A stretch of 64,000 nucleotides of DNA from Escherichia coli (GTDB lineage Bacteria > Pseudomonadota > Gammaproteobacteria > Enterobacterales > Enterobacteriaceae), in NCBI RefSeq assembly GCF_044324875.1, contig NZ_CP172188.1. One strand, given 5' to 3'. Each line of letters begins with the position of its first letter. The first letter of the stretch is position 1. A program made the position numbers and the translations under genes. Under the pieces are notes generated by a model. It did no database searches. It saw only the letters and a list, made by a program, of their open reading frames with translations, and was not told the origin of the DNA. Positions 8,486 through 62,160 of the stretch are shown one piece after another.

Positions 8486-8746
8486 ATGCGAAAGAATCGT
8501 AGGTTTACGGTCGAAGACCTAAAGGAATATTCCATATCGAAGGGGTATGTCCTTGAGTTTCACCGTTACAAGAAGGTTTTTACGCTGCGAAAAGCAGAAA
8601 ACCCAGCGAGCTGGAGCTGGGTATACTTCCCTCATACAGAAGACAAACTGGTAGAGCTTGTTGATGATTTAACCTATGAAGGGTGGTTGATCGCAATCGA
8701 CAAGACAATCACAGAAATATCCGAACCGGATAAAATAAACCTTTAA
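8486..8746 (+). CDS. hypothetical protein
   Basis: 86-aa ORF starting 3 nt after the previous stop. Confidence 0.5.
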   Translation: MRKNRRFTVEDLKEYSISKGYVLEFHRYKKVFTLRKAENPASWSWVYFPHTEDKLVELVDDLTYEGWLIAIDKTITEISEPDKINL

Positions 8747-12451: not shown

Positions 12452-12528
12452 GATGGTGTAGCTCAGTAGGATAGAGCAGCAGCCTTCTAAGCTGTCGGTC
12501 GGTGGTTCGAATCCACCCACCATCGCCA
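12452..12528 (+). tRNA. tRNA-Arg (anticodon TCT)
   Basis: 77 nt; 7-bp acceptor stem GATGGTG/CACCATC, D-arm GCTC..GAGC, anticodon loop CTTCTAA, T-arm GGTGG TTCGAAT CCACC, encoded CCA. Confidence 0.9.
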
Positions 12529-12530
12529 AT

Positions 12531-12606
12531 GCCGGTTTAGCTCAGTTGGTAGAGCGCCTGCCTTGTAAGCAGGATGTCAGCGGTTCGAGTCCGTTAACCG
12601 GCACCA
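12531..12606 (+). tRNA. tRNA-Thr (anticodon TGT)
   Basis: 76 nt; acceptor GCCGGTT/AACCGGC, anticodon loop CTTGTAA, T-loop TTCGAGT, encoded CCA; P1 also carries a tRNA-Thr. Confidence 0.9.
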
Positions 12607-13561: not shown

Positions 13562-13637
13562 GGCCCTTTAGCTCAGTGGTTAGAGCTGGCGACTCATAAT
13601 CGCACGGTCACCGGTTCAAGTCCGGTAGGGGCCACCA
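13562..13637 (+). tRNA. tRNA with CAT anticodon, most likely tRNA-Ile2 (lysidine type) rather than elongator Met
   Basis: 76 nt; GGCCCTT acceptor, anticodon loop CTCATAA, T-loop TTCAAGT; resembles enterobacterial ileX-type tRNA as I recall it; P1 also encodes a tRNA-Ile. Confidence 0.85.
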
Positions 13638-15166: not shown

Positions 15167-15559
15167 ATGGAGCATATCAGCAGCGCAGAAATTGCGGATA
15201 TCATGATTAGGGCTGACTGCTATCTGACAGTCACCGAAATCACCACTCTAGCTAAAGAAAAATATCCTCACCTTCATGTTTCACGCGTAAGTGTAACCAA
15301 CATCATTCGGCATTTTGTGCGGTCAAGCCGAGCTATTTGTGAGCTTGATGATCGTGTTTACCCACGGAAATACTGGTTGCATGGCCTGAACGGATATCAG
15401 TTCAAGGTGCGCGGGCGCACGCCTGAATACGGTAGCTTACTGGTTAAAAACTGTAGCAGGAAATCAGTCGAACAGGCGCGAAAAGAGCAACGAGAGCTGG
15501 TGGACATGGCGAATAAGCTGTGGAATGCCGCCGTTAAAAAGCGTGGTGTTGCTTTATGA
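15167..15559 (+). CDS. candidate late-promoter activator (Lpa-like), by synteny only
   Basis: 130-aa basic protein immediately upstream of the terminase genes and preceded by an operator-like site, as for lpa in P1; no sequence-level confirmation. Confidence 0.3.
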   Translation: MEHISSAEIADIMIRADCYLTVTEITTLAKEKYPHLHVSRVSVTNIIRHFVRSSRAICELDDRVYPRKYWLHGLNGYQFKVRGRTPEYGSLLVKNCSRKSVEQARKEQRELVDMANKLWNAAVKKRGVAL

Positions 15560-16920
15560 GTCTGGTTAATTGGGAGGAGCACCGCGCCCGCTTTATAGCG
15601 TTGCGTGAAGAAAAAGGGATCACTGTAAAGGAATACTGTGAGGAGCATGGCCTTAGCTTCAATACAGCCAGAAAGCATCTCAATATGAAAAAAAATGAGG
15701 TGCGGTCGCAGGTGAAGACTACAAAAAAAAGCACCAAATCACCTGAAAAAAAACGGGCAGGAAGAGCAAAAAAAAGGCCAGAAGAGGGTACAGAAACAAC
15801 AAAATTTACAGAAACTGACAATTCACAGAGCGGAAGTTCTTTCCGGAGCATGCCGAGAAAGAAAACTTCGGATCATAAAAATAACGACAATAATAACAAT
15901 GAGATAAAAGAATCTGTCAGGAGATCATTGCGCGAAAAAATGGCGAAAATGATCCCCACCGAAGATAAATGCGCCTCAAAAATCGAGGGATCTTCAGCAA
16001 TGATCCCTGGCGGTGCTGTGCAGCGTGCCACGTTGCCCACTACGAGTGTGGCTCGCGACATGATGAAGAACGGCGCAGAAGAGCACCTGCGGTTAGCAAT
16101 TCAAATGGCGCAAGAACGCGCACTTCAGTACCAAAGCATTGTTGATCAGGAGGCCGAACGCCTACAGGCGGAGATAGACGCCCTGGGTGATGAACAGCCA
16201 GAAGGAATGCACCCTGGGCAGCGACTTCTCGGTCTAATCAGTGACGCGGCCTACTACATGAACGATTTTATCAGTAGGTTGGCAGCGATATATCAGTCCG
16301 AACAAAAGCTGCGACAGGGTGATGAAAAACTTCGTCAGGGTGCTCGCCAGCAAGCATTCAGAGAGGCCGAGGCCAGAGAAAAACTCGAATTAGCACGCCT
16401 ACAGGCCGAACAGCGTGGCAAAGAGATTGAATATCGCATTGGCGCTGACGCACGCGCAGCCAGAGTTATCGCCGCCGCTATACGTATGCGTGAGCGCGAG
16501 GAGCTGGATGATATCGGTGTTGCTGAATACATCGAGCGTCAGGGTGTCAGTGTCCCGGCTATCCTCGCGGCGCGCGCGGCGAAAGCTATCACTCTTCTCG
16601 AGCCTCCAGTTTCTGACATCAATGATGTTGATGATGAACAGCTGGACAAAGAAGCGAAGGAGTTTGCATCGCTTCAGGCTAACCATCCGCAATGGCTGGC
16701 AGAGCGCCGGGCGGATGTGGCAACCATTGTTGAAGATCTGGGGTGCGGAGATTACGACCACAATGGCGAGCGTAAGGCTGGGGAATTCGAGGCCAACGAC
16801 GAAGAGTTGGATATTGACCCTTCGGCTACGGCTGAAATTTACGGTGATTATGATGCATCAGACGCAGGATATGACGCCGGAGATGATGATATCGCGATAG
16901 AACCGCCGGAGGACGACTAA
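15556..16920 (+). CDS. terminase small subunit (PacA-like)
   Basis: 454 aa; N-terminal HTH-like region, Lys-rich linker, acidic C-terminus; overlaps large-subunit start (TAATG). Confidence 0.55.
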   Translation: MSLVNWEEHRARFIALREEKGITVKEYCEEHGLSFNTARKHLNMKKNEVRSQVKTTKKSTKSPEKKRAGRAKKRPEEGTETTKFTETDNSQSGSSFRSMPRKKTSDHKNNDNNNNEIKESVRRSLREKMAKMIPTEDKCASKIEGSSAMIPGGAVQRATLPTTSVARDMMKNGAEEHLRLAIQMAQERALQYQSIVDQEAERLQAEIDALGDEQPEGMHPGQRLLGLISDAAYYMNDFISRLAAIYQSEQKLRQGDEKLRQGARQQAFREAEAREKLELARLQAEQRGKEIEYRIGADARAARVIAAAIRMREREELDDIGVAEYIERQGVSVPAILAARAAKAITLLEPPVSDINDVDDEQLDKEAKEFASLQANHPQWLAERRADVATIVEDLGCGDYDHNGERKAGEFEANDEELDIDPSATAEIYGDYDASDAGYDAGDDDIAIEPPEDD

Positions 16921-18428
16921 TGGCTGGTGGGCGCAAGATTAAATGCGTCACCAGCGATCCACGCTGGCGCGATATGGTAATCAAATACCGCTACAACTTT
17001 ACCCAGGCTGTTGTTGATATTTTCGGGATGTTTCCCTCCCACCAGCAGCAGGAGATTATCCAGTCCGTACAGCAAAAAGGGAGCAGAACCACTGTTACTT
17101 CTGGTCACGGTACAGGGAAATCGTCGTTAACGGCTATGTTGTTGCTGATTTATTTGATTCTGTTCCCCGATGCCCGTGTCATCATTGTTGCTAACAAGAT
17201 AGGCCAGGTTAAAACAGGCGTATTCAAATACGTTAAACAGTATTGGGCGAATGCAGTTAAGCGTCACGGGTGGTTACAGACCTATTTTGTCCTGTCTGAC
17301 ACCATGTTTTATGAACGTTCCCGCAAAGGGATCTGGGAAGTTCTCTGCAAAGGTTATCGACTCGGTAACGAAGAAGCACTGGCGGGGGAGCACGCGGCAC
17401 ATTTGCTTCTAATTCTGGATGAAGCATCAGGTATATCTGATAAAGCGATCGGCGTAATGACTGGCGCTCTGACTGAAGAAGATAACCGAATGTTGATGCT
17501 ATCCCAGCCAACAAGGCCAAGTGGTTATTTCTACGATTCGCACCATTCTCAAGCTAAAACCCCAGACAACCCGAAAGGGATCTGGACAGCAATTGTTCTT
17601 AACTCAGAAGAATCACCGTTCGTCACACCACAATTCATCAGGCAGAAGCTTCTGGAATATGGCGGGCGCGATTCTATTGAGTACATGGTCAAGGTTCTTG
17701 GTCAGTTTCCTCGGGAGATTAACGGCTATTTGCTTGGTCGTGATGAATGCGATCGCGCTGCGCGGCGCAAGGTGTTGTTGGAGAAAAACTGGGGATGGGT
17801 GGCTACTGCTGACGTTGGTAACGGGCGAGACAAGTCAGTTCTTAATATCTGTAAAGTGTCTGGTCACCGGGAAAAGCGGCGTGTTGTTAACTTTAAGGTA
17901 ATGGAAATGCCAGGGACTATGGACCCGCTGGCTTTTGCTGACTTTATATACAACGAATGCACGCCGGATAAATACCCGAATATTACAATCGCGGTTGACG
18001 CAGACGGTTTTGGTTCAGATACCTGTGCGCAGCTGGTGCGCCGTGGGGCTAATCCGGTACGGATTCGGTGGGGGAAACCCATGTTTTCGAACAAAGACAA
18101 GGAGCGTTTTGTTAACCAGCGTGCCTACGCAAATATTATGGCTCGTGATGCCATAAAGTCAGGTCGTATGCGAATAGACAGCGACCCTAAAACGGCAGAG
18201 CAAGCGTCAAAAATCCCCTTTTTACTTAATGAAGAAGGGAAGATGGCGATGATGCGCAAGGAGCACATGCGGCAAAAGCTGAACATCAAATCACCTGACC
18301 GATGGGATACCTACTGCTTTACAATGCTGGTGGACTATGTTCCTGCTAATGAAGATATCGGCGCTGAAATGGCTACCTTCCGCGATCAGGTTCTTGCAGA
18401 TGTGGAAATGCCAGAGCTGGATATATAA
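16920..18428 (+). CDS. terminase large subunit (PacB-like; ATPase + nuclease)
   Basis: 502 aa; Walker A TSGHGTGKSS, Walker B LLLILDEASGISD, long C-terminal nuclease-type domain. Confidence 0.85.
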   Translation: MAGGRKIKCVTSDPRWRDMVIKYRYNFTQAVVDIFGMFPSHQQQEIIQSVQQKGSRTTVTSGHGTGKSSLTAMLLLIYLILFPDARVIIVANKIGQVKTGVFKYVKQYWANAVKRHGWLQTYFVLSDTMFYERSRKGIWEVLCKGYRLGNEEALAGEHAAHLLLILDEASGISDKAIGVMTGALTEEDNRMLMLSQPTRPSGYFYDSHHSQAKTPDNPKGIWTAIVLNSEESPFVTPQFIRQKLLEYGGRDSIEYMVKVLGQFPREINGYLLGRDECDRAARRKVLLEKNWGWVATADVGNGRDKSVLNICKVSGHREKRRVVNFKVMEMPGTMDPLAFADFIYNECTPDKYPNITIAVDADGFGSDTCAQLVRRGANPVRIRWGKPMFSNKDKERFVNQRAYANIMARDAIKSGRMRIDSDPKTAEQASKIPFLLNEEGKMAMMRKEHMRQKLNIKSPDRWDTYCFTMLVDYVPANEDIGAEMATFRDQVLADVEMPELDI

Positions 18429-18450
18429 AGCCCCGGCAATGCGGGGCTTG
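18429..18450. terminator. hairpin between convergent terminase and repressor-candidate genes
   Basis: AAGCCCCGGCAATGCGGGGCTT. Confidence 0.45.
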
Positions 18451-18453
18451 TGA

Positions 18454-19491
18454 TTACCAGAGTTTAGCGGCGTGCTGTGTTTGGGAGAAAGTGAACCCGT
18501 AACGTTCTTCTATGGTTTTACCGTATCTTTTCCGCGCGTCTGTCAGTTTTATGCCTGTCAGGTCATCTCCGGATGTCATCATTACGTCTAACAACTCCAG
18601 ATCCATTTTATTCAGTCGCGCCATCGCTTCGCGTGCTGTCTGTATTTTACGCTCAATGATATGGCGAATAGCCGGATCGGCTTCCTCAAGCATTTTGGCT
18701 GATTTGTTCTTTAAGCTCTCATTGCGGATGTCGATGTTTCGCAAGATGTATGACTTCGCAACATAGCTTGGTTGGTGTTTCTCCAGATCGCGAACGCGAT
18801 AGAGACTAAAGTCACCAAGCAGGCCGCAAGGTATCGACTCAACCCCAGAATAAATAGTAATGCTGCGACGTTCGCCGACATTATTAACAACGGGCACTGT
18901 GGTGTTCGGAAGTTTTGCGAACACTAAGGCTCCGTGTGCGCCTACCCTGAATCGTGACAGAGCATTGCTGCCTTCAATGTTTGTTGTAAGCACTACATCT
19001 GTGTATCCATCTTTGCGCGCCCGGTAAACTTCCCCTTCAGGTTCTGATGCGAAAAAACGGCGCTCTTCTTCAAGTGCACCAACAATCTGCGAAAATATCT
19101 TGTTTTTCAGGCTTTTCTTTATAATTGCATCATATTTTTTGAGCAGATTTTCGCGCGTAAATGAGCGGGTGGTGGTCGCGCTTTGCACAACAATATGCGT
19201 GCTTTGATTTGTGTCCTCGATAATGAATGGGATCGGAGAATATACAGACTCAACAATGTTAGACGCTTTGCCGTCAGCGTTACGGCACAAGTCAACAAAG
19301 GCTTTCCATTCTGTGAGGCACTTTTCAGCTTCTTCTAGCACATTCTGATCATGTGTTAGTGCAACATGGCGGAATTCCTCGCCGGCATAACTGGTATCAT
19401 GGAAAACAGAGTTTGCGACCACCAGCTCTTTCCACCGTTCAGCGGTTTGCAGGAACCGTTTGTACTCTTTCTCGATCGACTTCTTACTCAT
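18454..19491 (-). CDS. candidate C1-like master repressor (by position and operator cluster; sequence not confirmed)
   Basis: 345 aa; convergent with pacB as c1 is in P1; its upstream region 19504..19700 carries 2-3 operator-like motifs. Confidence 0.35.
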   Translation of the reverse strand: MSKKSIEKEYKRFLQTAERWKELVVANSVFHDTSYAGEEFRHVALTHDQNVLEEAEKCLTEWKAFVDLCRNADGKASNIVESVYSPIPFIIEDTNQSTHIVVQSATTTRSFTRENLLKKYDAIIKKSLKNKIFSQIVGALEEERRFFASEPEGEVYRARKDGYTDVVLTTNIEGSNALSRFRVGAHGALVFAKLPNTTVPVVNNVGERRSITIYSGVESIPCGLLGDFSLYRVRDLEKHQPSYVAKSYILRNIDIRNESLKNKSAKMLEEADPAIRHIIERKIQTAREAMARLNKMDLELLDVMMTSGDDLTGIKLTDARKRYGKTIEERYGFTFSQTQHAAKLW

Positions 19492-19503
19492 TATTCCTAC
19501 TCG

Positions 19504-19520
19504 ATTTAGTTTTCTAACAT
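19504..19520 (-). promoter_or_regulatory. operator-like motif copy (reverse strand ATGTTAGAAAACTAAAT)
   Basis: 13 nt upstream of the candidate repressor start codon. Confidence 0.5.
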
Positions 19521-19691
19521 AAAATTACTATGACAAATCTATGCCGAATAACAGGGTGAGTAAAGGATCAAGATGCATTTTTTTATCATCCAATTTAGAA
19601 AATTCTGCTTAAAAACTGCCAGGCATAACTTAAAGCCCACGCCAGCAATGCATTGCCCATCTGCGCGGAAAGGAAAAAAATTCCTAAGTTT

Positions 19692-19725
19692 CTAACTTTA
19701 GATAATTGGCATTATTTAAAGTTAG
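19692..19725. other. lox-like 34-bp recombination site (13-bp inverted arms, 8-bp spacer)
   Basis: CTAACTTTAGATA-ATTGGCAT-TATTTAAAGTTAG; arms differ at one position; 9 of 13 arm positions shared with loxP ATAACTTCGTATA; 150 bp upstream of the Cre-like gene. Confidence 0.55.
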
Positions 19726-19876
19726 GCTATAATTATGGGTAGATGATCAGTATTGACATCACTGAAAATACGTGCCTCGAATCAAAGGCTTGAATCTTGA
19801 AAATTAACTTATAGCTACCCTGTCATTTTTATATTTTTCGCGTAGCGTCATCTGTATATAGAGGTTAAATAGTTTC

Positions 19877-20905
19877 ATGAGTGAATTAATTATCTCTGGC
19901 AGCTCCGGTGGTTTTCTGCGCAACATTGGCAAAGAGTACCAGGAGGCCGCAGAAAACTTTATGCGGTTCATGAATGACCAGGGGGCTTACGCGCCGAATA
20001 CTTTGCGCGATCTCCGGTTAGTGTTTCACTCCTGGGCGAGATGGTGTCACGCTCGCCAGCTCGCCTGGTTCCCGATCTCACCAGAGATGGCCCGCGAGTA
20101 TTTTCTTCAGCTGCATGATGCTGATCTGGCTTCGACCACCATTGATAAGCACTACGCCATGCTTAACATGCTGCTTTCGCATTGTGGCCTTCCGCCACTT
20201 TCGGATGATAAAAGTGTTTCTCTGGCTATGCGGCGCATCCGGCGTGAAGCGGCAACTGAAAAAGGCGAACGAACAGGCCAGGCTATACCGCTGCGGTGGG
20301 ACGATCTGAAACTGCTCGACGTCCTGTTGTCCAGGTCAGAACGGCTGGTGGACCTGCGCAACCGGGCTTTTCTCTTTGTTGCATACAATACGCTGATGCG
20401 TATGTCGGAAATCTCGCGTATTCGTGTAGGAGATCTGGATCAAACAGGTGACACTGTCACGCTACATATTTCACACACGAAGACAATAACGACCGCCGCC
20501 GGGCTTGATAAGGTGCTTTCCCGTCGCACTACCGCTGTGCTGAATGACTGGCTGGATGTTTCCGGGCTTCGCGAACATCCTGACGCAGTGTTGTTCCCGC
20601 CGATACACCGTAGCAATAAGGCCAGGATCACGACAACGCCCCTTACTGCACCTGCAATGGAGAAAATATTCAGCGACGCCTGGGTGTTGCTGAATAAAAG
20701 AGATGCTACGCCAAACAAAGGAAGATACCGGACGTGGACCGGGCATAGTGCACGCGTCGGGGCCGCTATTGATATGGCTGAAAAGCAGGTGTCTATGGTG
20801 GAGATCATGCAGGAAGGAACCTGGAAGAAACCGGAAACACTTATGCGGTATCTTCGCCGTGGCGGCGTGTCTGTGGGGGCTAATAGCCGCCTGATGGATT
20901 CGTAA
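19877..20905 (+). CDS. cre: Cre-family tyrosine recombinase
   Basis: 342 aa; blocks resembling P1 Cre as recalled: MLNMLLSHCGLPPLSDDKSVSLAMRRIRRE, DLRNRAFLFVAYNTLMRMSEISRIRVGDL, WTGHSARVGAAIDMAEKQVSMVEIMQEGTWKKPETLMRYLR (R-H-R-Y region). Confidence 0.85.
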   Translation: MSELIISGSSGGFLRNIGKEYQEAAENFMRFMNDQGAYAPNTLRDLRLVFHSWARWCHARQLAWFPISPEMAREYFLQLHDADLASTTIDKHYAMLNMLLSHCGLPPLSDDKSVSLAMRRIRREAATEKGERTGQAIPLRWDDLKLLDVLLSRSERLVDLRNRAFLFVAYNTLMRMSEISRIRVGDLDQTGDTVTLHISHTKTITTAAGLDKVLSRRTTAVLNDWLDVSGLREHPDAVLFPPIHRSNKARITTTPLTAPAMEKIFSDAWVLLNKRDATPNKGRYRTWTGHSARVGAAIDMAEKQVSMVEIMQEGTWKKPETLMRYLRRGGVSVGANSRLMDS

Positions 20906-22748: not shown

Positions 22749-23516
22749 ATGGAAAGCACTAAAACAATTCAATACCGCTTGCGTAATGGCCTGCTGGTGG
22801 CTGTTAACGCCGACATGTCACTGCCGTTTGACACGATTGAACGCACTATCATGACGTATCTCGGCTTTAATGAAGAGCTGAATGAAGAGCATGGCGTAGC
22901 TATATGGAGTGATGCAGACAGCGGCGTTCGTCGTTACATCACCGCCAGGGGCAAAGACTACTCTCTGGAAGAACTGTTTGCCCTTGCGCAGTCTTTCGAA
23001 TGTGTAGCATTAGACCTGTTTAATGATCCTGCTATAGCGCAACGACTTATACGCGAGCTTGGGCTATCCGTTACACCAATTATATTTAAAAATGGCAGCC
23101 TGACTGGCACATGGCGCGTAGAACGCATCTCAAACTACCTTCCATATAACCGACAGTTAAATGGAGTAATCTCCGGCGTTAACCAGCCCGTAGCGTGTGA
23201 AAATGTAAACCTGGTTGTCGCTGTTTTGGCAACCGCATGTCGTGTTATCGGTTTGGCTAAACAGGCATTTATTCATTTCCCAAATGGTGCAGAAGGTAGC
23301 GCAGAGATTATCGCGTGTGATTTCGAATTTACCTGGATGCTACGCGAATATCTGGACCAAACAGTATTCCGTGCCGAAGAACTGGATATGTATATCACGT
23401 CAACGATTCCAGACGATGTGCGAGCTGAAGCAATCGCTACAGCCAGGGCGAAATGCCGTGCGGCGATTGCAGAACAGGCCAAAGAAGAAGTTAAGGAAGT
23501 GGCAGATGGCGACTAA
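22749..23516 (+). CDS. hypothetical protein
   Basis: 255-aa ORF in the same operon. Confidence 0.5.
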   Translation: MESTKTIQYRLRNGLLVAVNADMSLPFDTIERTIMTYLGFNEELNEEHGVAIWSDADSGVRRYITARGKDYSLEELFALAQSFECVALDLFNDPAIAQRLIRELGLSVTPIIFKNGSLTGTWRVERISNYLPYNRQLNGVISGVNQPVACENVNLVVAVLATACRVIGLAKQAFIHFPNGAEGSAEIIACDFEFTWMLREYLDQTVFRAEELDMYITSTIPDDVRAEAIATARAKCRAAIAEQAKEEVKEVADGD

Positions 23517-24600
23517 GAGCAATATTTATAAAGATCCGCGCTGGCTGTCGCTGGTGGAGAAATATAAAGACAATTGGGTACTGGCAGCAAAAGAATTGTT
23601 TGATATTGATTTAAGCCACCAGCAACAACAAATTGTTGAAGCTATACAGCCCAATAATGCAAAAGCTACTGTCACCACTCCGTATGGGATCGGACGACCG
23701 CAAGTGCTTGCTGTTATTAGTACCCTTTATACGATTATGTATCCTGATTCCCGGACAGTAATTGTTTATCCAAAATCAAATGTTTGCAAAAGAGGAATTG
23801 TTGCATATGTGTGGCAATGTTGGGAGGCATTGCTGAAAAAACAACCTTTTATCATTGAGTATTTTAAGGTCGGTGATAGCGGTCTGATGTTCAATGAATT
23901 TTGGGGAATGTGCTTTTGTAACTTCCGCCTTAACTATGAAGATAGCATTGCAGGTCACTACGCCGACCATCTTTTATTCATTATTGTGGATTCCGCACAT
24001 ATCAGCGATCGGGCATACAGCATTGTGTGGGCAAGCATGACTAGTGGTGATTCACGCATATTGCTCACTTCAATTCCGTCACCAGAGGAAATAGGCTTTT
24101 TTTATGATTCACATCATGGACGTGCTTTAGCTGAAGATAATCCGAGTGGTGTATATAAAGCCATTAAGCTGAGTGCGGAGGATTCACCATTTATTACCCA
24201 AGAATATCTTGATCATTTTGCCGAAAGGTATGGCGGGCGAAATAGTGATGACTATCGTCGTATGATTCTTGGTGAGTTCCCTGGTATTAGGGAGGCTGTT
24301 CTTGAATCAGATATGCCGAAGACAATGCGCTTTTCGATGCCTGATGGTAGTGAATGGACAATACCATTACGAGTGATAGCCCGGCATCATGCGCAGCACC
24401 ACGCCAAAAAACATGGCGTCACGACATTAGAATGGTTGAAATCGCACACCATTCCACTCTTCACTGCAGATCACAATGCTATCGTTGAGTGGGCAAAAAC
24501 AATTCCGTGGGAGAATGTCGCTGAATACGCCCACATGCTAAAACCGCCGAAAGACAGGCAAGAAATTAGCTGGCTGACAGCAGAAAAAATCATTGAGTGA
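23506..24600 (+). CDS. terminase-large-subunit ATPase-domain paralog with degenerate Walker motifs and no nuclease domain
   Basis: 364 aa from ATG 23506 (RBS AAGGAAG); aligns to PacB-like 16920..18428 (DPRW..KY, SHQQQ, YDSHH, DNP, YGGR, FPG) but Walker A GHGTGKS becomes PYGIGRP and Walker B ILDEAS becomes IIVDSA. Confidence 0.65.
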   Translation: MATKSNIYKDPRWLSLVEKYKDNWVLAAKELFDIDLSHQQQQIVEAIQPNNAKATVTTPYGIGRPQVLAVISTLYTIMYPDSRTVIVYPKSNVCKRGIVAYVWQCWEALLKKQPFIIEYFKVGDSGLMFNEFWGMCFCNFRLNYEDSIAGHYADHLLFIIVDSAHISDRAYSIVWASMTSGDSRILLTSIPSPEEIGFFYDSHHGRALAEDNPSGVYKAIKLSAEDSPFITQEYLDHFAERYGGRNSDDYRRMILGEFPGIREAVLESDMPKTMRFSMPDGSEWTIPLRVIARHHAQHHAKKHGVTTLEWLKSHTIPLFTADHNAIVEWAKTIPWENVAEYAHMLKPPKDRQEISWLTAEKIIE

Positions 24601-31402: not shown

Positions 31403-31443
31403 AATGTATACCGACTCTGTTTTGTTCCGAGCGGTAAAATAAT

Positions 31444-31477
31444 ATGTTAGAAAACTAAAATCAATGTTCTAACACAT
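31444..31477. promoter_or_regulatory. paired (inverted) operator-like motifs
   Basis: ATGTTAGAAAACTAAAATCAATGTTCTAACACAT: TGTTAGAA ... TTCTAACA inverted halves; upstream of the 30407..31402 gene. Confidence 0.5.
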
Positions 31478-38139: not shown

Positions 38140-38430
38140 GGCATTATCGTGGGGTATATTTCTACGGCACCTTAGAAAAACGGGTGCCGGGATTGGAACC
38201 CCGGATAATGCAAAAGGCGACACAGACGCCGAAAGCGTCTTTTCTTGTGTCATGCCATCGCACAGCCATACGTAGCGTTTAGCTCAGAGATCAATGGTAG
38301 TGCTGGCTGGGCTGCCGAAAGGCAGGCCGGTTCCCTTTTGCGCCGGTAGTTCCAACCCAGTCAGTGCTACCGCCATTGAGATTGGAACCTCACGCGGTAG
38401 CTCCTTAAATTAGCAAAAGGAGGCTGCCAA
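38140..38430 (+). ncRNA. candidate c4-like antisense RNA / leader region of immunity module A
   Basis: Structured leader upstream of the icd-like gene: direct repeats GATTGGAACC (38192, 38383) and a partly complementary GTTCCAACC (38346); hairpin GACGCCGAAAGCGTC + T-run near 38223. Confidence 0.3.
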
Positions 38431-52750: not shown

Positions 52751-52792
52751 CAATTGTGTTAGATAATTGAACAGAATTTTCTAACACAATTG
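52751..52792. promoter_or_regulatory. palindromic operator-like site upstream of rdgC
   Basis: CAATTGTGTTAGA ... TCTAACACAATTG, perfect 13-bp inverted arms. Confidence 0.6.
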
Positions 52793-61793: not shown

Positions 61794-61820
61794 GCTTCAC
61801 AAAATCTATATAGCTATTTT

Positions 61821-61838
61821 ATGTTAGAAAAATAATTT
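61821..61838 (+). promoter_or_regulatory. operator-like motif copy (ATGTTAGAAAAATAATTT), candidate control site of immunity module B
   Basis: Consensus copy ~100 nt upstream of the c4-like leader. Confidence 0.5.
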
Positions 61839-61899
61839 GAATTTTCGAACATAAACAATAAAATAAATCATCAAAAATTTGATGTTGATCTTCCATGTT

Positions 61900-62160
61900 T
61901 TCAGGCTTATATTCACGCCGTTGCAGCAAATTCTGCGACCGGGTTTAGCAGCCTGAATGTACATGCGGACAACCGCAGATATCCGATATTGCGGTATTTT
62001 TGTGTCCGTAAAACCATGTTACGCCCGAATTATGGTGGGGCGTGATGGGGAGGCTTCGGCCTGCTGGTTTCATGTACGCCAGTCTGCTAACCCCGTCACG
62101 TCCTGCCACCCGTTTAGCAGCGGGTAGCAGGTTGTTAAACCTGTACATGAGGCCGTAACT
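61900..62160 (+). ncRNA. candidate c4-like antisense RNA locus of immunity module B
   Basis: Paired elements a=TTTAGCAG and b=GTACATG occur at 61945/61958 and again at 62112/62141; complements (CATGTAC at 62066, CTGCTAA at 62085) lie between in reversed order. Confidence 0.35.

Follow-up and report, generated by a model that had tools for sequence, protein, structure and literature searches.

The C1 repressor of bacteriophage P1 reportedly acts at 22 scattered operators, whose 17-bp consensus ATTGCTCTAATAAATTT is asymmetric, and represses its own promoters (PMC8546580). A closer relative of the locus described here belongs to Escherichia phage D6, whose c1 gene has been annotated since 2004 and is deposited in GenBank as 'phage repressor protein; similar to the C1 repressor of phage P1', in a record that also holds pacB, rox and dre as corresponding features. 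Additionally, a re-annotated D6-like Salmonella plasmid has a C1 homologue and two c4-icd-antirepressor regions, and no Lxc (PMC6799933). Here, we analysed a stretch of 64,000 nucleotides from Escherichia coli (contig NZ_CP172188.1), referred to as the window, which represents 64 kb of an element of approximately 90 kb, and focused on positions 18454-19725, which comprise a 345-aa minus-strand open reading frame (ORF; 18454-19491), named c1 in the following, and its upstream region. We consider it very likely that the product of this ORF is the C1-type master repressor controlling lytic functions in a D6-like phage-plasmid. The gene itself is already known and the gene call is ordinary; what is added here is a map of its putative operators, the arrangement of a candidate promoter (Pc1) between two operators (O2 and O1), a C-terminal domain specific to the subfamily and a Tus-like fold in the predicted structure.

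The window is colinear with D6 over its whole length, and a megablast search with positions 18300-20000 identified Escherichia phage D6 at 85% identity. Near-identical copies (at least 99% DNA identity) are found on 22 or more plasmids from E. coli, Shigella and Salmonella, some of which label the ORF 'phage repressor protein'. We identify the window as part of a D6-like phage-plasmid and the region 18454-19725 as its immC locus. Elements of the D6 type occur commonly in E. coli and Salmonella, and their immunity switch is relevant to induction and host-range studies.

Identity of the repressor gene

The protein encoded in the window is an orthologue of D6 C1 (AY753669 c1 / MF356679 D6_1), which is also 345 aa long and lies between pacB and rox/dre; the two are 90% identical and thus diverge at 10% of their amino acids. 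With P1 C1 (283 aa), BLASTP returned 20% identity over 239 aa (E 8e-8), and when P1 C1 was searched against the 64-kb window by tblastn, the c1 ORF was the sole match. PHROG 1678 is matched end to end by both the window protein (E 4.7e-159) and P1 C1 (E 2.6e-140), and the Pfam family PF27008 ('Phage_P7_repressor_C1') is precomputed on all 12 database relatives and is also named on distant relatives. The Pfam-A scan of the window protein itself gave no match, because the Pfam-A copy used does not include PF27008, and PDB sequence searches with the protein likewise gave no match. The first-pass annotation had proposed a C1-like repressor from gene position and operators, and had suggested that it may be a divergent or novel type; these homologies point to the same assignment, and of the two descriptions only the former stands, as the protein is a divergent long-form member of the known C1 family and not a new repressor type. 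The profile comparison with P1 C1, which had been suggested as a check, agrees through the shared PHROG.

The gene starts with ATG, with AGGA in front, and occupies the slot that c1 has in P1, as had been noticed earlier. A pacB-like large terminase ORF (502 aa; 16920-18428, plus strand; PacB-type PHROG matches), ahead of which lies pacA (15556-16920), is convergent with c1, and on its other side c1 adjoins the rox/Dre junction, with a spacer of 385 bp upstream of c1 inside which there is a 32-bp inverted repeat (19693-19724). The arrangement pacB / c1 / lox-type site / recombinase corresponds to pacB / c1 / lox / cre in P1, and the synteny of pacA, pacB, c1, rox or lox, and recombinase is common to P1, D6 and five metagenomic or genomic relatives. 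Across the relatives L006 to L010, C1 identity is 53, 50, 45, 42 and 33%, respectively, and all of them keep the recombinase / c1 / pacB synteny.

An exhaustive profile search yielded 119 cluster representatives, which fall into two length classes, of about 250-290 aa (P1-like) and about 345-360 aa (D6-like). Residues 1 to about 240 of the window protein form a core homologous to P1 C1, and residues from about 245 to 345 a helical C-terminal extension; the long form therefore has about 100 extra C-terminal residues that are not present in P1 C1. Compared with the P1/P7 C1 proteins (PF27008, NF041318, PHROG 1678), the window protein shares the core of about 240 aa and the genomic slot, and differs in its low identity (20%), in its operator sequence and in the extra C-terminal part. 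The control regions also differ in size, with about 700 bp in P1/P7 and about 200 bp in the window.

A further difference concerns the partner genes. P1 Coi, ImcA, ImcB and Lxc gave no tblastn match in the 64-kb window or in the complete D6 genome, with the neighbouring ulx found at E 3e-40 as a positive control in the same search, and in this respect both elements differ from P1/P7. The first-pass annotation had pointed to 19492-19876 as a place for small coi-like ORFs; no conserved one was found there, since every ORF of at least 20 aa in this interval differs between the window and D6 and none is similar to P1 Coi, ImcA or ImcB. An 86-aa ORF directly after ulx (8486-8746, plus strand), in the slot of lxc in P1, was considered as Lxc and set aside, as it shows no similarity and matches PHROG 6844 as against PHROG 2160 for Lxc; it could be a positional analogue of lxc or unrelated.

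The operator motif across the window

We next examined the motif that precedes c1. Copies of the 8-mer core TTTCTAAC number 14 in the window, where 2.07 are expected, and none of 100 shuffles reached 14. Alignment of the flanks of the core copies gave the asymmetric consensus AATTAGTTTTCTAACATAA, and the corresponding 19-nt matrix detects 22 sites at 14 bits or more in the 64-kb window, against 0.64 expected in shuffles; for weaker matches the chance level is high, with 16.6 sites expected in the window at 8 bits or more. By a crude gene call, 16 of the 22 sites are intergenic, whereas 13.5% of the window is intergenic. The D6 genome has 20 motif sites, at orthologous positions.

The genes that follow these sites correspond to known targets of P1 C1. 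One site lies 76 nt upstream of lpa, the late-gene activator (71 nt for Olpa in P1), and another lies 63 nt upstream of a ref homologue (99 nt for Oref in P1). Strong sites are also present upstream of both C4 antisense RNA genes identified with Rfam (38290-38377 and 62028-62113), and in the D6 genome sites precede repL and the hrdC-dmt block as well. The two C4 regions appear to be c4-icd-antirepressor modules of the immI type, and strong C1-type operator sites lie upstream of each. The element would hence resemble P1/P7 in having approximately 20 asymmetric operators that are scattered as single or paired sites, lie ahead of lpa, ref, c4-ant and c1, and include several before the repressor's own gene. 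An explicit consensus and site map of this kind for the D6 group of phage-plasmids predicts immunity specificity and the genes under prophage control.

Several features of individual sites were also observed. Overlapping inverted, and thus palindromic, pairs occur at 31442-31477, 52754-52789 and 61819-61854, in which two 19-mers of 20-27 bits each share 2 nt; by synteny with D6 these lie upstream of a pdcB-like gene, the hrdC-dmt block and one c4 module. Within the regions 38167-38377 and 61907-62113, the C4 antisense RNA family (RF01695) is matched with 76.7 and 71.7 bits, respectively, and one of the C4 RNA genes is preceded by an isrK-like RNA and the other has a c4-a1b1 target element. The most distant relative, L010 (33% identity), is without TTTCTAAC upstream of c1 (region 5548-6003 of L010); it has the inverted pair ATTAGATAGCTGTTCAATAATCTAAC, and the 9-mer ATAATCTAA occurs three times in 8.5 kb. 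A TCTAA core recurs in the P1, D6-type and L010-type sites. Another L010 repeat, GCTATTTAC, was considered as a different operator and rejected, as it is more simply explained as the -35/-10 region of the same promoter type.

Organisation of the c1 control region

The proximal operator O1, ATTTAGTTTTCTAACATAA (19504-19522), is in plus orientation, opposite to c1, and at 28.1 bits it is the top score of the window; it starts 13 nt from the A of the c1 ATG (19491), as had been reported in the first-pass annotation. O1 is 100% conserved in D6, and its core lies at -25 to -33 in L006 to L009. Upstream of it we identified a candidate c1 promoter, Pc1 (19564-19536, minus strand), with -35 hexamer TTTACT (19564-19559), a 17-nt spacer and -10 hexamer TAGATT (19541-19536). 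The pattern TTTAC[TG]-17-TAnAnn recurs at this position in the window, D6, L006, L007, L008 and L009, with spacer sequences that have diverged, and the expected chance occurrence is 0.029 per shuffled 303-nt region. Across these relatives the distance from the start of the -10 hexamer to O1 is fixed at 24-26 nt. Transcription of c1 would start near 19529, which would place O1 at about +8 to +26, before the ribosome-binding site, and bound C1 would therefore block c1 transcription. An earlier promoter candidate, TTGTCA-17-AAAACT, with its -10 within O1, was dropped, being only loosely kept in relatives, where TTTAC[TG]-17-TAnAnn is better conserved.

The distal operator O2, GCAGAATTTTCTAAATTGG with core TTTCTAAA (19590-19608), is degenerate, is in minus orientation, that is the orientation of c1, and lies about 30 nt upstream of the -35 hexamer. 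Its core is conserved between the window and D6 within an otherwise diverged stretch. O2 is very probably a real site, because a perfect TTTCTAAC core occupies the same position and orientation in L006 to L009; across these four, the window and D6, the distal core lies at -106 to -122. The layout of O2, Pc1 and O1 is thus kept in relatives of 42-53% C1 identity. A third operator-like site, O3 (19682-19700, plus strand; 8.2 bits), has an exact TTTCTAAC core, overlaps the left arm of rox and abuts the -35 hexamer of a promoter directed toward dre; its role as an operator is uncertain. Further degenerate copies upstream of c1 had been noted earlier, and of these O2 is borne out by its positional match whereas O3, which is not in D6, stays doubtful. 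The position of O3 beside the dre promoter resembles that of Oc1e beside P4cre in P1.

The dre-directed promoter itself (19706-19733, plus strand) is sigma-70-like, TTGGCA-16-TATAAT, agrees with the consensus at 11 of 12 positions, is conserved in D6 and has its -35 hexamer in the rox spacer. On the opposite strand, a promoter-like ATGTCA-16-CATAAT (19759-19732) reads through rox toward c1, which recalls P2coi reading through lox in P1, and the two promoter-like sites stand face to face within 19706-19759 with overlapping -10 hexamers. A LexA box near rox, like the one at P2coi of P1, was also considered, and only a half-site of it is visible by eye, at about 19852-19867.

When the window is compared with D6 at this locus, O1 and the first 80 bp or so upstream are almost identical, whereas the stretch from O2 to rox is diverged and has a 9-bp indel. 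The exact operator core at the edge of rox is found only in the window, and the left arm of rox differs by one substitution.

Predicted structure and similarity to Tus

An AlphaFold2 model of the protein, built from a 75-sequence family alignment, has a mean pLDDT of 95.1 and a pTM of 0.81. In this confident model, residues 1 to about 232 make up an alpha+beta core with long twisted strands, residues 233-307 form a long helical hairpin and residues 316-342 a small three-helix bundle. Residues R41, P86, P88, R157 and R159 are invariant. A Foldseek search of the PDB gave four Tus-DNA complexes as the sole significant matches (E 2e-7 to 5e-6, probability 1.0), with about 310 aligned columns and TM scores of 0.36-0.44, and the fifth match was at E 0.2. 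Against AFDB50, the C1 family was on top, with the P1 'Primary repressor of lytic functions' at E 1.8e-10, and after the C1 family came dozens of proteins named 'DNA replication terminus site-binding protein' (E 2e-8 to 2e-6). By these searches the predicted model has a Tus-like fold.

The likeness to Tus (PF05472; PDB 1ecr, 4xr0-2) is one of fold in a predicted model, and homology is not implied by it. At the sequence level, hhalign gave a probability of 7%, no Tus was among the PDB profile matches at E of 10 or below, and PF05472 was not matched; a sequence-level relationship to Tus was accordingly dropped as evidence at this hhalign value. To the eye the operator and TerB are similar, and they have AATnAGT and TAAC blocks in common, for which gaps are needed, and 14% of composition-matched shuffles score as well (p 0.14), so that the site sequences are not significantly alike. 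Tus is the best and sole strong structural neighbour of the predicted model, and it differs in sequence and in acting in fork arrest as against the transcriptional immunity expected here.

As a monomer, Tus binds Ter with interdomain beta-strands that enter the major groove, and its autoregulation works through TerB, which lies 10 nt before the tus start codon. A Tus-like fold would fit the biology of C1 because Tus, too, reads an asymmetric site and has TerB just before its own start codon. To our knowledge, no helix-turn-helix motif is known in P1 C1. A literature search found no paper mentioning both Tus and a C1 repressor, with the main D6 and P1 genome papers lying outside that search. 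Tentatively, and with slightly less than even confidence, we suggest that C1-family repressors are Tus-fold monomeric clamps on asymmetric sites that share an origin or a DNA-binding mode with Tus; they might act as roadblocks, possibly orientation-dependent, at about 20 sites to RNA polymerase and conceivably to replication forks, with the C-terminal domain of the D6 lineage replacing control by Coi and Lxc. If true, the Tus fold would explain how C1 reads an asymmetric site and would link phage immunity to replication-termination proteins.

Proposed mechanism and alternative explanations

By homology with P1 C1, the repressor of the D6-like element would bind the asymmetric operator of about 17-19 bp, AATTAGTTTTCTAACATAA, as single sites or palindromic pairs in about 20 promoter regions genome-wide. 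Its targets would include lpa, ref and the two c4-icd-antirepressor operons, as well as repL in the D6 genome, and occupancy of these operators would keep the plasmid prophage quiescent. The repressor gene would be read from the weak, conserved sigma-70 promoter Pc1 (19564-19536, minus strand), flanked by inverted operators, with O2 upstream of the -35 hexamer and O1 just before the ribosome-binding site. Bound C1 would turn off c1 transcription by a roadblock at O1, which an O1-O2 loop possibly reinforces, and the Tus-like core of the model would suit recognition of an asymmetric site. The D6-type C1 would work without Coi, ImcA/B or Lxc partners, and has an extra C-terminal helical hairpin and three-helix bundle. 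DNA binding and repression by the ORF product, the start site, the looping and the monomeric binding are what we infer here, as opposed to the ORF, its homology, the motif statistics, the positional conservation and the fold similarity of the model, which we observed. A footprinted c1 promoter between two operators would be a testable design of autoregulation without Coi or Lxc. A comparable working mode is known from mycobacteriophage L5, whose repressor gp71 has many dispersed asymmetric 'stoperators', some of them downstream of start sites, where it blocks elongation; gp71 has an unrelated helix-turn-helix fold and belongs to a different host and phage type, so that the likeness is one of working mode and not of homology to D6-type C1.

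Several observations weigh against this account. Pc1 agrees with the sigma-70 consensus at 8 of 12 positions, was missed by a generic promoter scan and would be a weak promoter, and the transcription start is a predicted one. O2 scores only 2.7 bits in the window, which by score is not above chance, and the score of O3 is likewise within chance, with TTTTATAAC at its place in D6. The O1-O2 core distances of 84, 84, 85, 85, 97 and 75 bp, only four independent values, are roughly whole helical turns and possibly compatible with a repression loop. The NCBIfam model NF041318, the equivalog of P1 C1, gives the window protein 23.1 bits and its cutoff of 500 is not reached; the score is far under the cutoff, and the protein should therefore be placed in a separate subfamily and not among P1 C1 equivalogs. 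The P1 operator ATTGCTCTAATAAATTT has 0 matches in the 64-kb window at up to 3 mismatches, and although the D6-type and P1 consensus sequences have a TCTAA core in common, their similarity is not significant (p 0.62). Since the operator sequence differs from that of P1, the D6-type element is presumably heteroimmune to P1.

Different explanations of the same data were therefore weighed. Given the predicted fold, the protein could primarily be a Tus-like replication-fork or helicase barrier, with the dispersed sites as Ter-like arrest sites and not transcriptional operators, and we regard this as very improbable: P1 C1, its homologue, has been shown by experiment to repress transcription (PMC8546580), the sites cluster in intergenic promoter regions of early or immunity genes, many of them as palindromic pairs, their orientations are without fork-trap polarity, and there is no sequence similarity to Tus (hhalign 7%, no profile match; operator-Ter p 0.14). 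A somewhat less remote, though still improbable, explanation is that the ORF is a C1 homologue whose true operator is a different one, with TTTCTAAC being part of a promoter or bound by a different regulator of the phage. The 3' part of the motif (CATAT/CATAA) often continues into -10-like hexamers, and the motif is not significantly similar to the P1 operator. Yet its copies at lpa, ref, c1 and c4 are placed like the C1 operators annotated in P1, their total of about 20-22 agrees with the 22 of P1 (PMC8546580), and the sites come as single copies and overlapping inverted pairs, like the monovalent and bivalent operators of P1. Moreover, the core upstream of c1 is kept at 42-53% identity in a fixed register with the promoter and outside its hexamers, and near c1 we saw no other motif of similar enrichment.

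Equally doubtful as the fork barrier is the possibility that O1 does not serve c1 autoregulation and instead controls a plus-strand transcript from the -10-like TAAAAT at 19520-19525 toward rox/dre, with c1 being constitutive or read from promoters beyond rox. Several other sites are, in their own orientation, directly followed by a -10-like hexamer (TATTAT, TATTTT or TAAAAT), and the minus-strand ATGTCA-16-CATAAT at 19759-19732, beyond rox, could feed c1 as P2coi does in P1. Nevertheless, no acceptable -35 is present upstream of 19520 on the plus strand, and TAAAAT is not kept in L006 or L008, whereas 6 of 6 retain the minus-strand TTTAC[TG]-17-TAnAnn and its spacing of 24-26 nt from O1; any upstream transcript toward c1 would furthermore still have to cross O1. 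Autoregulation of c1 from Pc1, through operators read by a C1-type repressor, is thus the reading that we retain.

Neighbouring sites and genes

At the convergent junction of pacB and c1 there is a G+C-rich hairpin (18428-18449) with an 8-bp stem, a folding energy of -16.1 kcal/mol and a z of -3.2, which is a candidate bidirectional terminator of both genes. At the other end of the locus, the rox-like site TAACTTTAGATAAT-TGGC-ATTATTTAAAGTTA (19693-19724) has one mismatch to the rox annotated in D6 (AY753669); it is the target of the adjoining Dre-like recombinase and the limit of the c1 control region. The recombinase is a Dre/Cre-like tyrosine recombinase of 342 aa (19877-20905, plus strand). 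The two arms of the rox-like site differ, with TAACTTTAGATAAT on the left and TAACTTTAAATAAT on the right, when read as the reverse complement; in D6 and L006 both arms carry A, and in L008 both carry G. The unequal arms may have a bearing on Dre/rox specificity.

Elsewhere in the window, three tRNA genes were detected with Rfam at 12452-12525, 12531-12603 and 13562-13634 (plus strand), which match the tRNA cluster annotated in D6. Additionally, the segment 23490-24645 is without a counterpart in D6 and overlaps a second PacB-like ORF (23215-24600, plus strand), whose true start is probably near 23500. Residues 104-356 of this ORF share 37% identity with the ATPase half of the window pacB product (E 2e-60), and its Walker A motif is degenerate (GHGTGKS to PYGIGRP) and its Walker B motif changed. 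The second PacB-like ORF may be a decoy or an inactive terminase paralogue.

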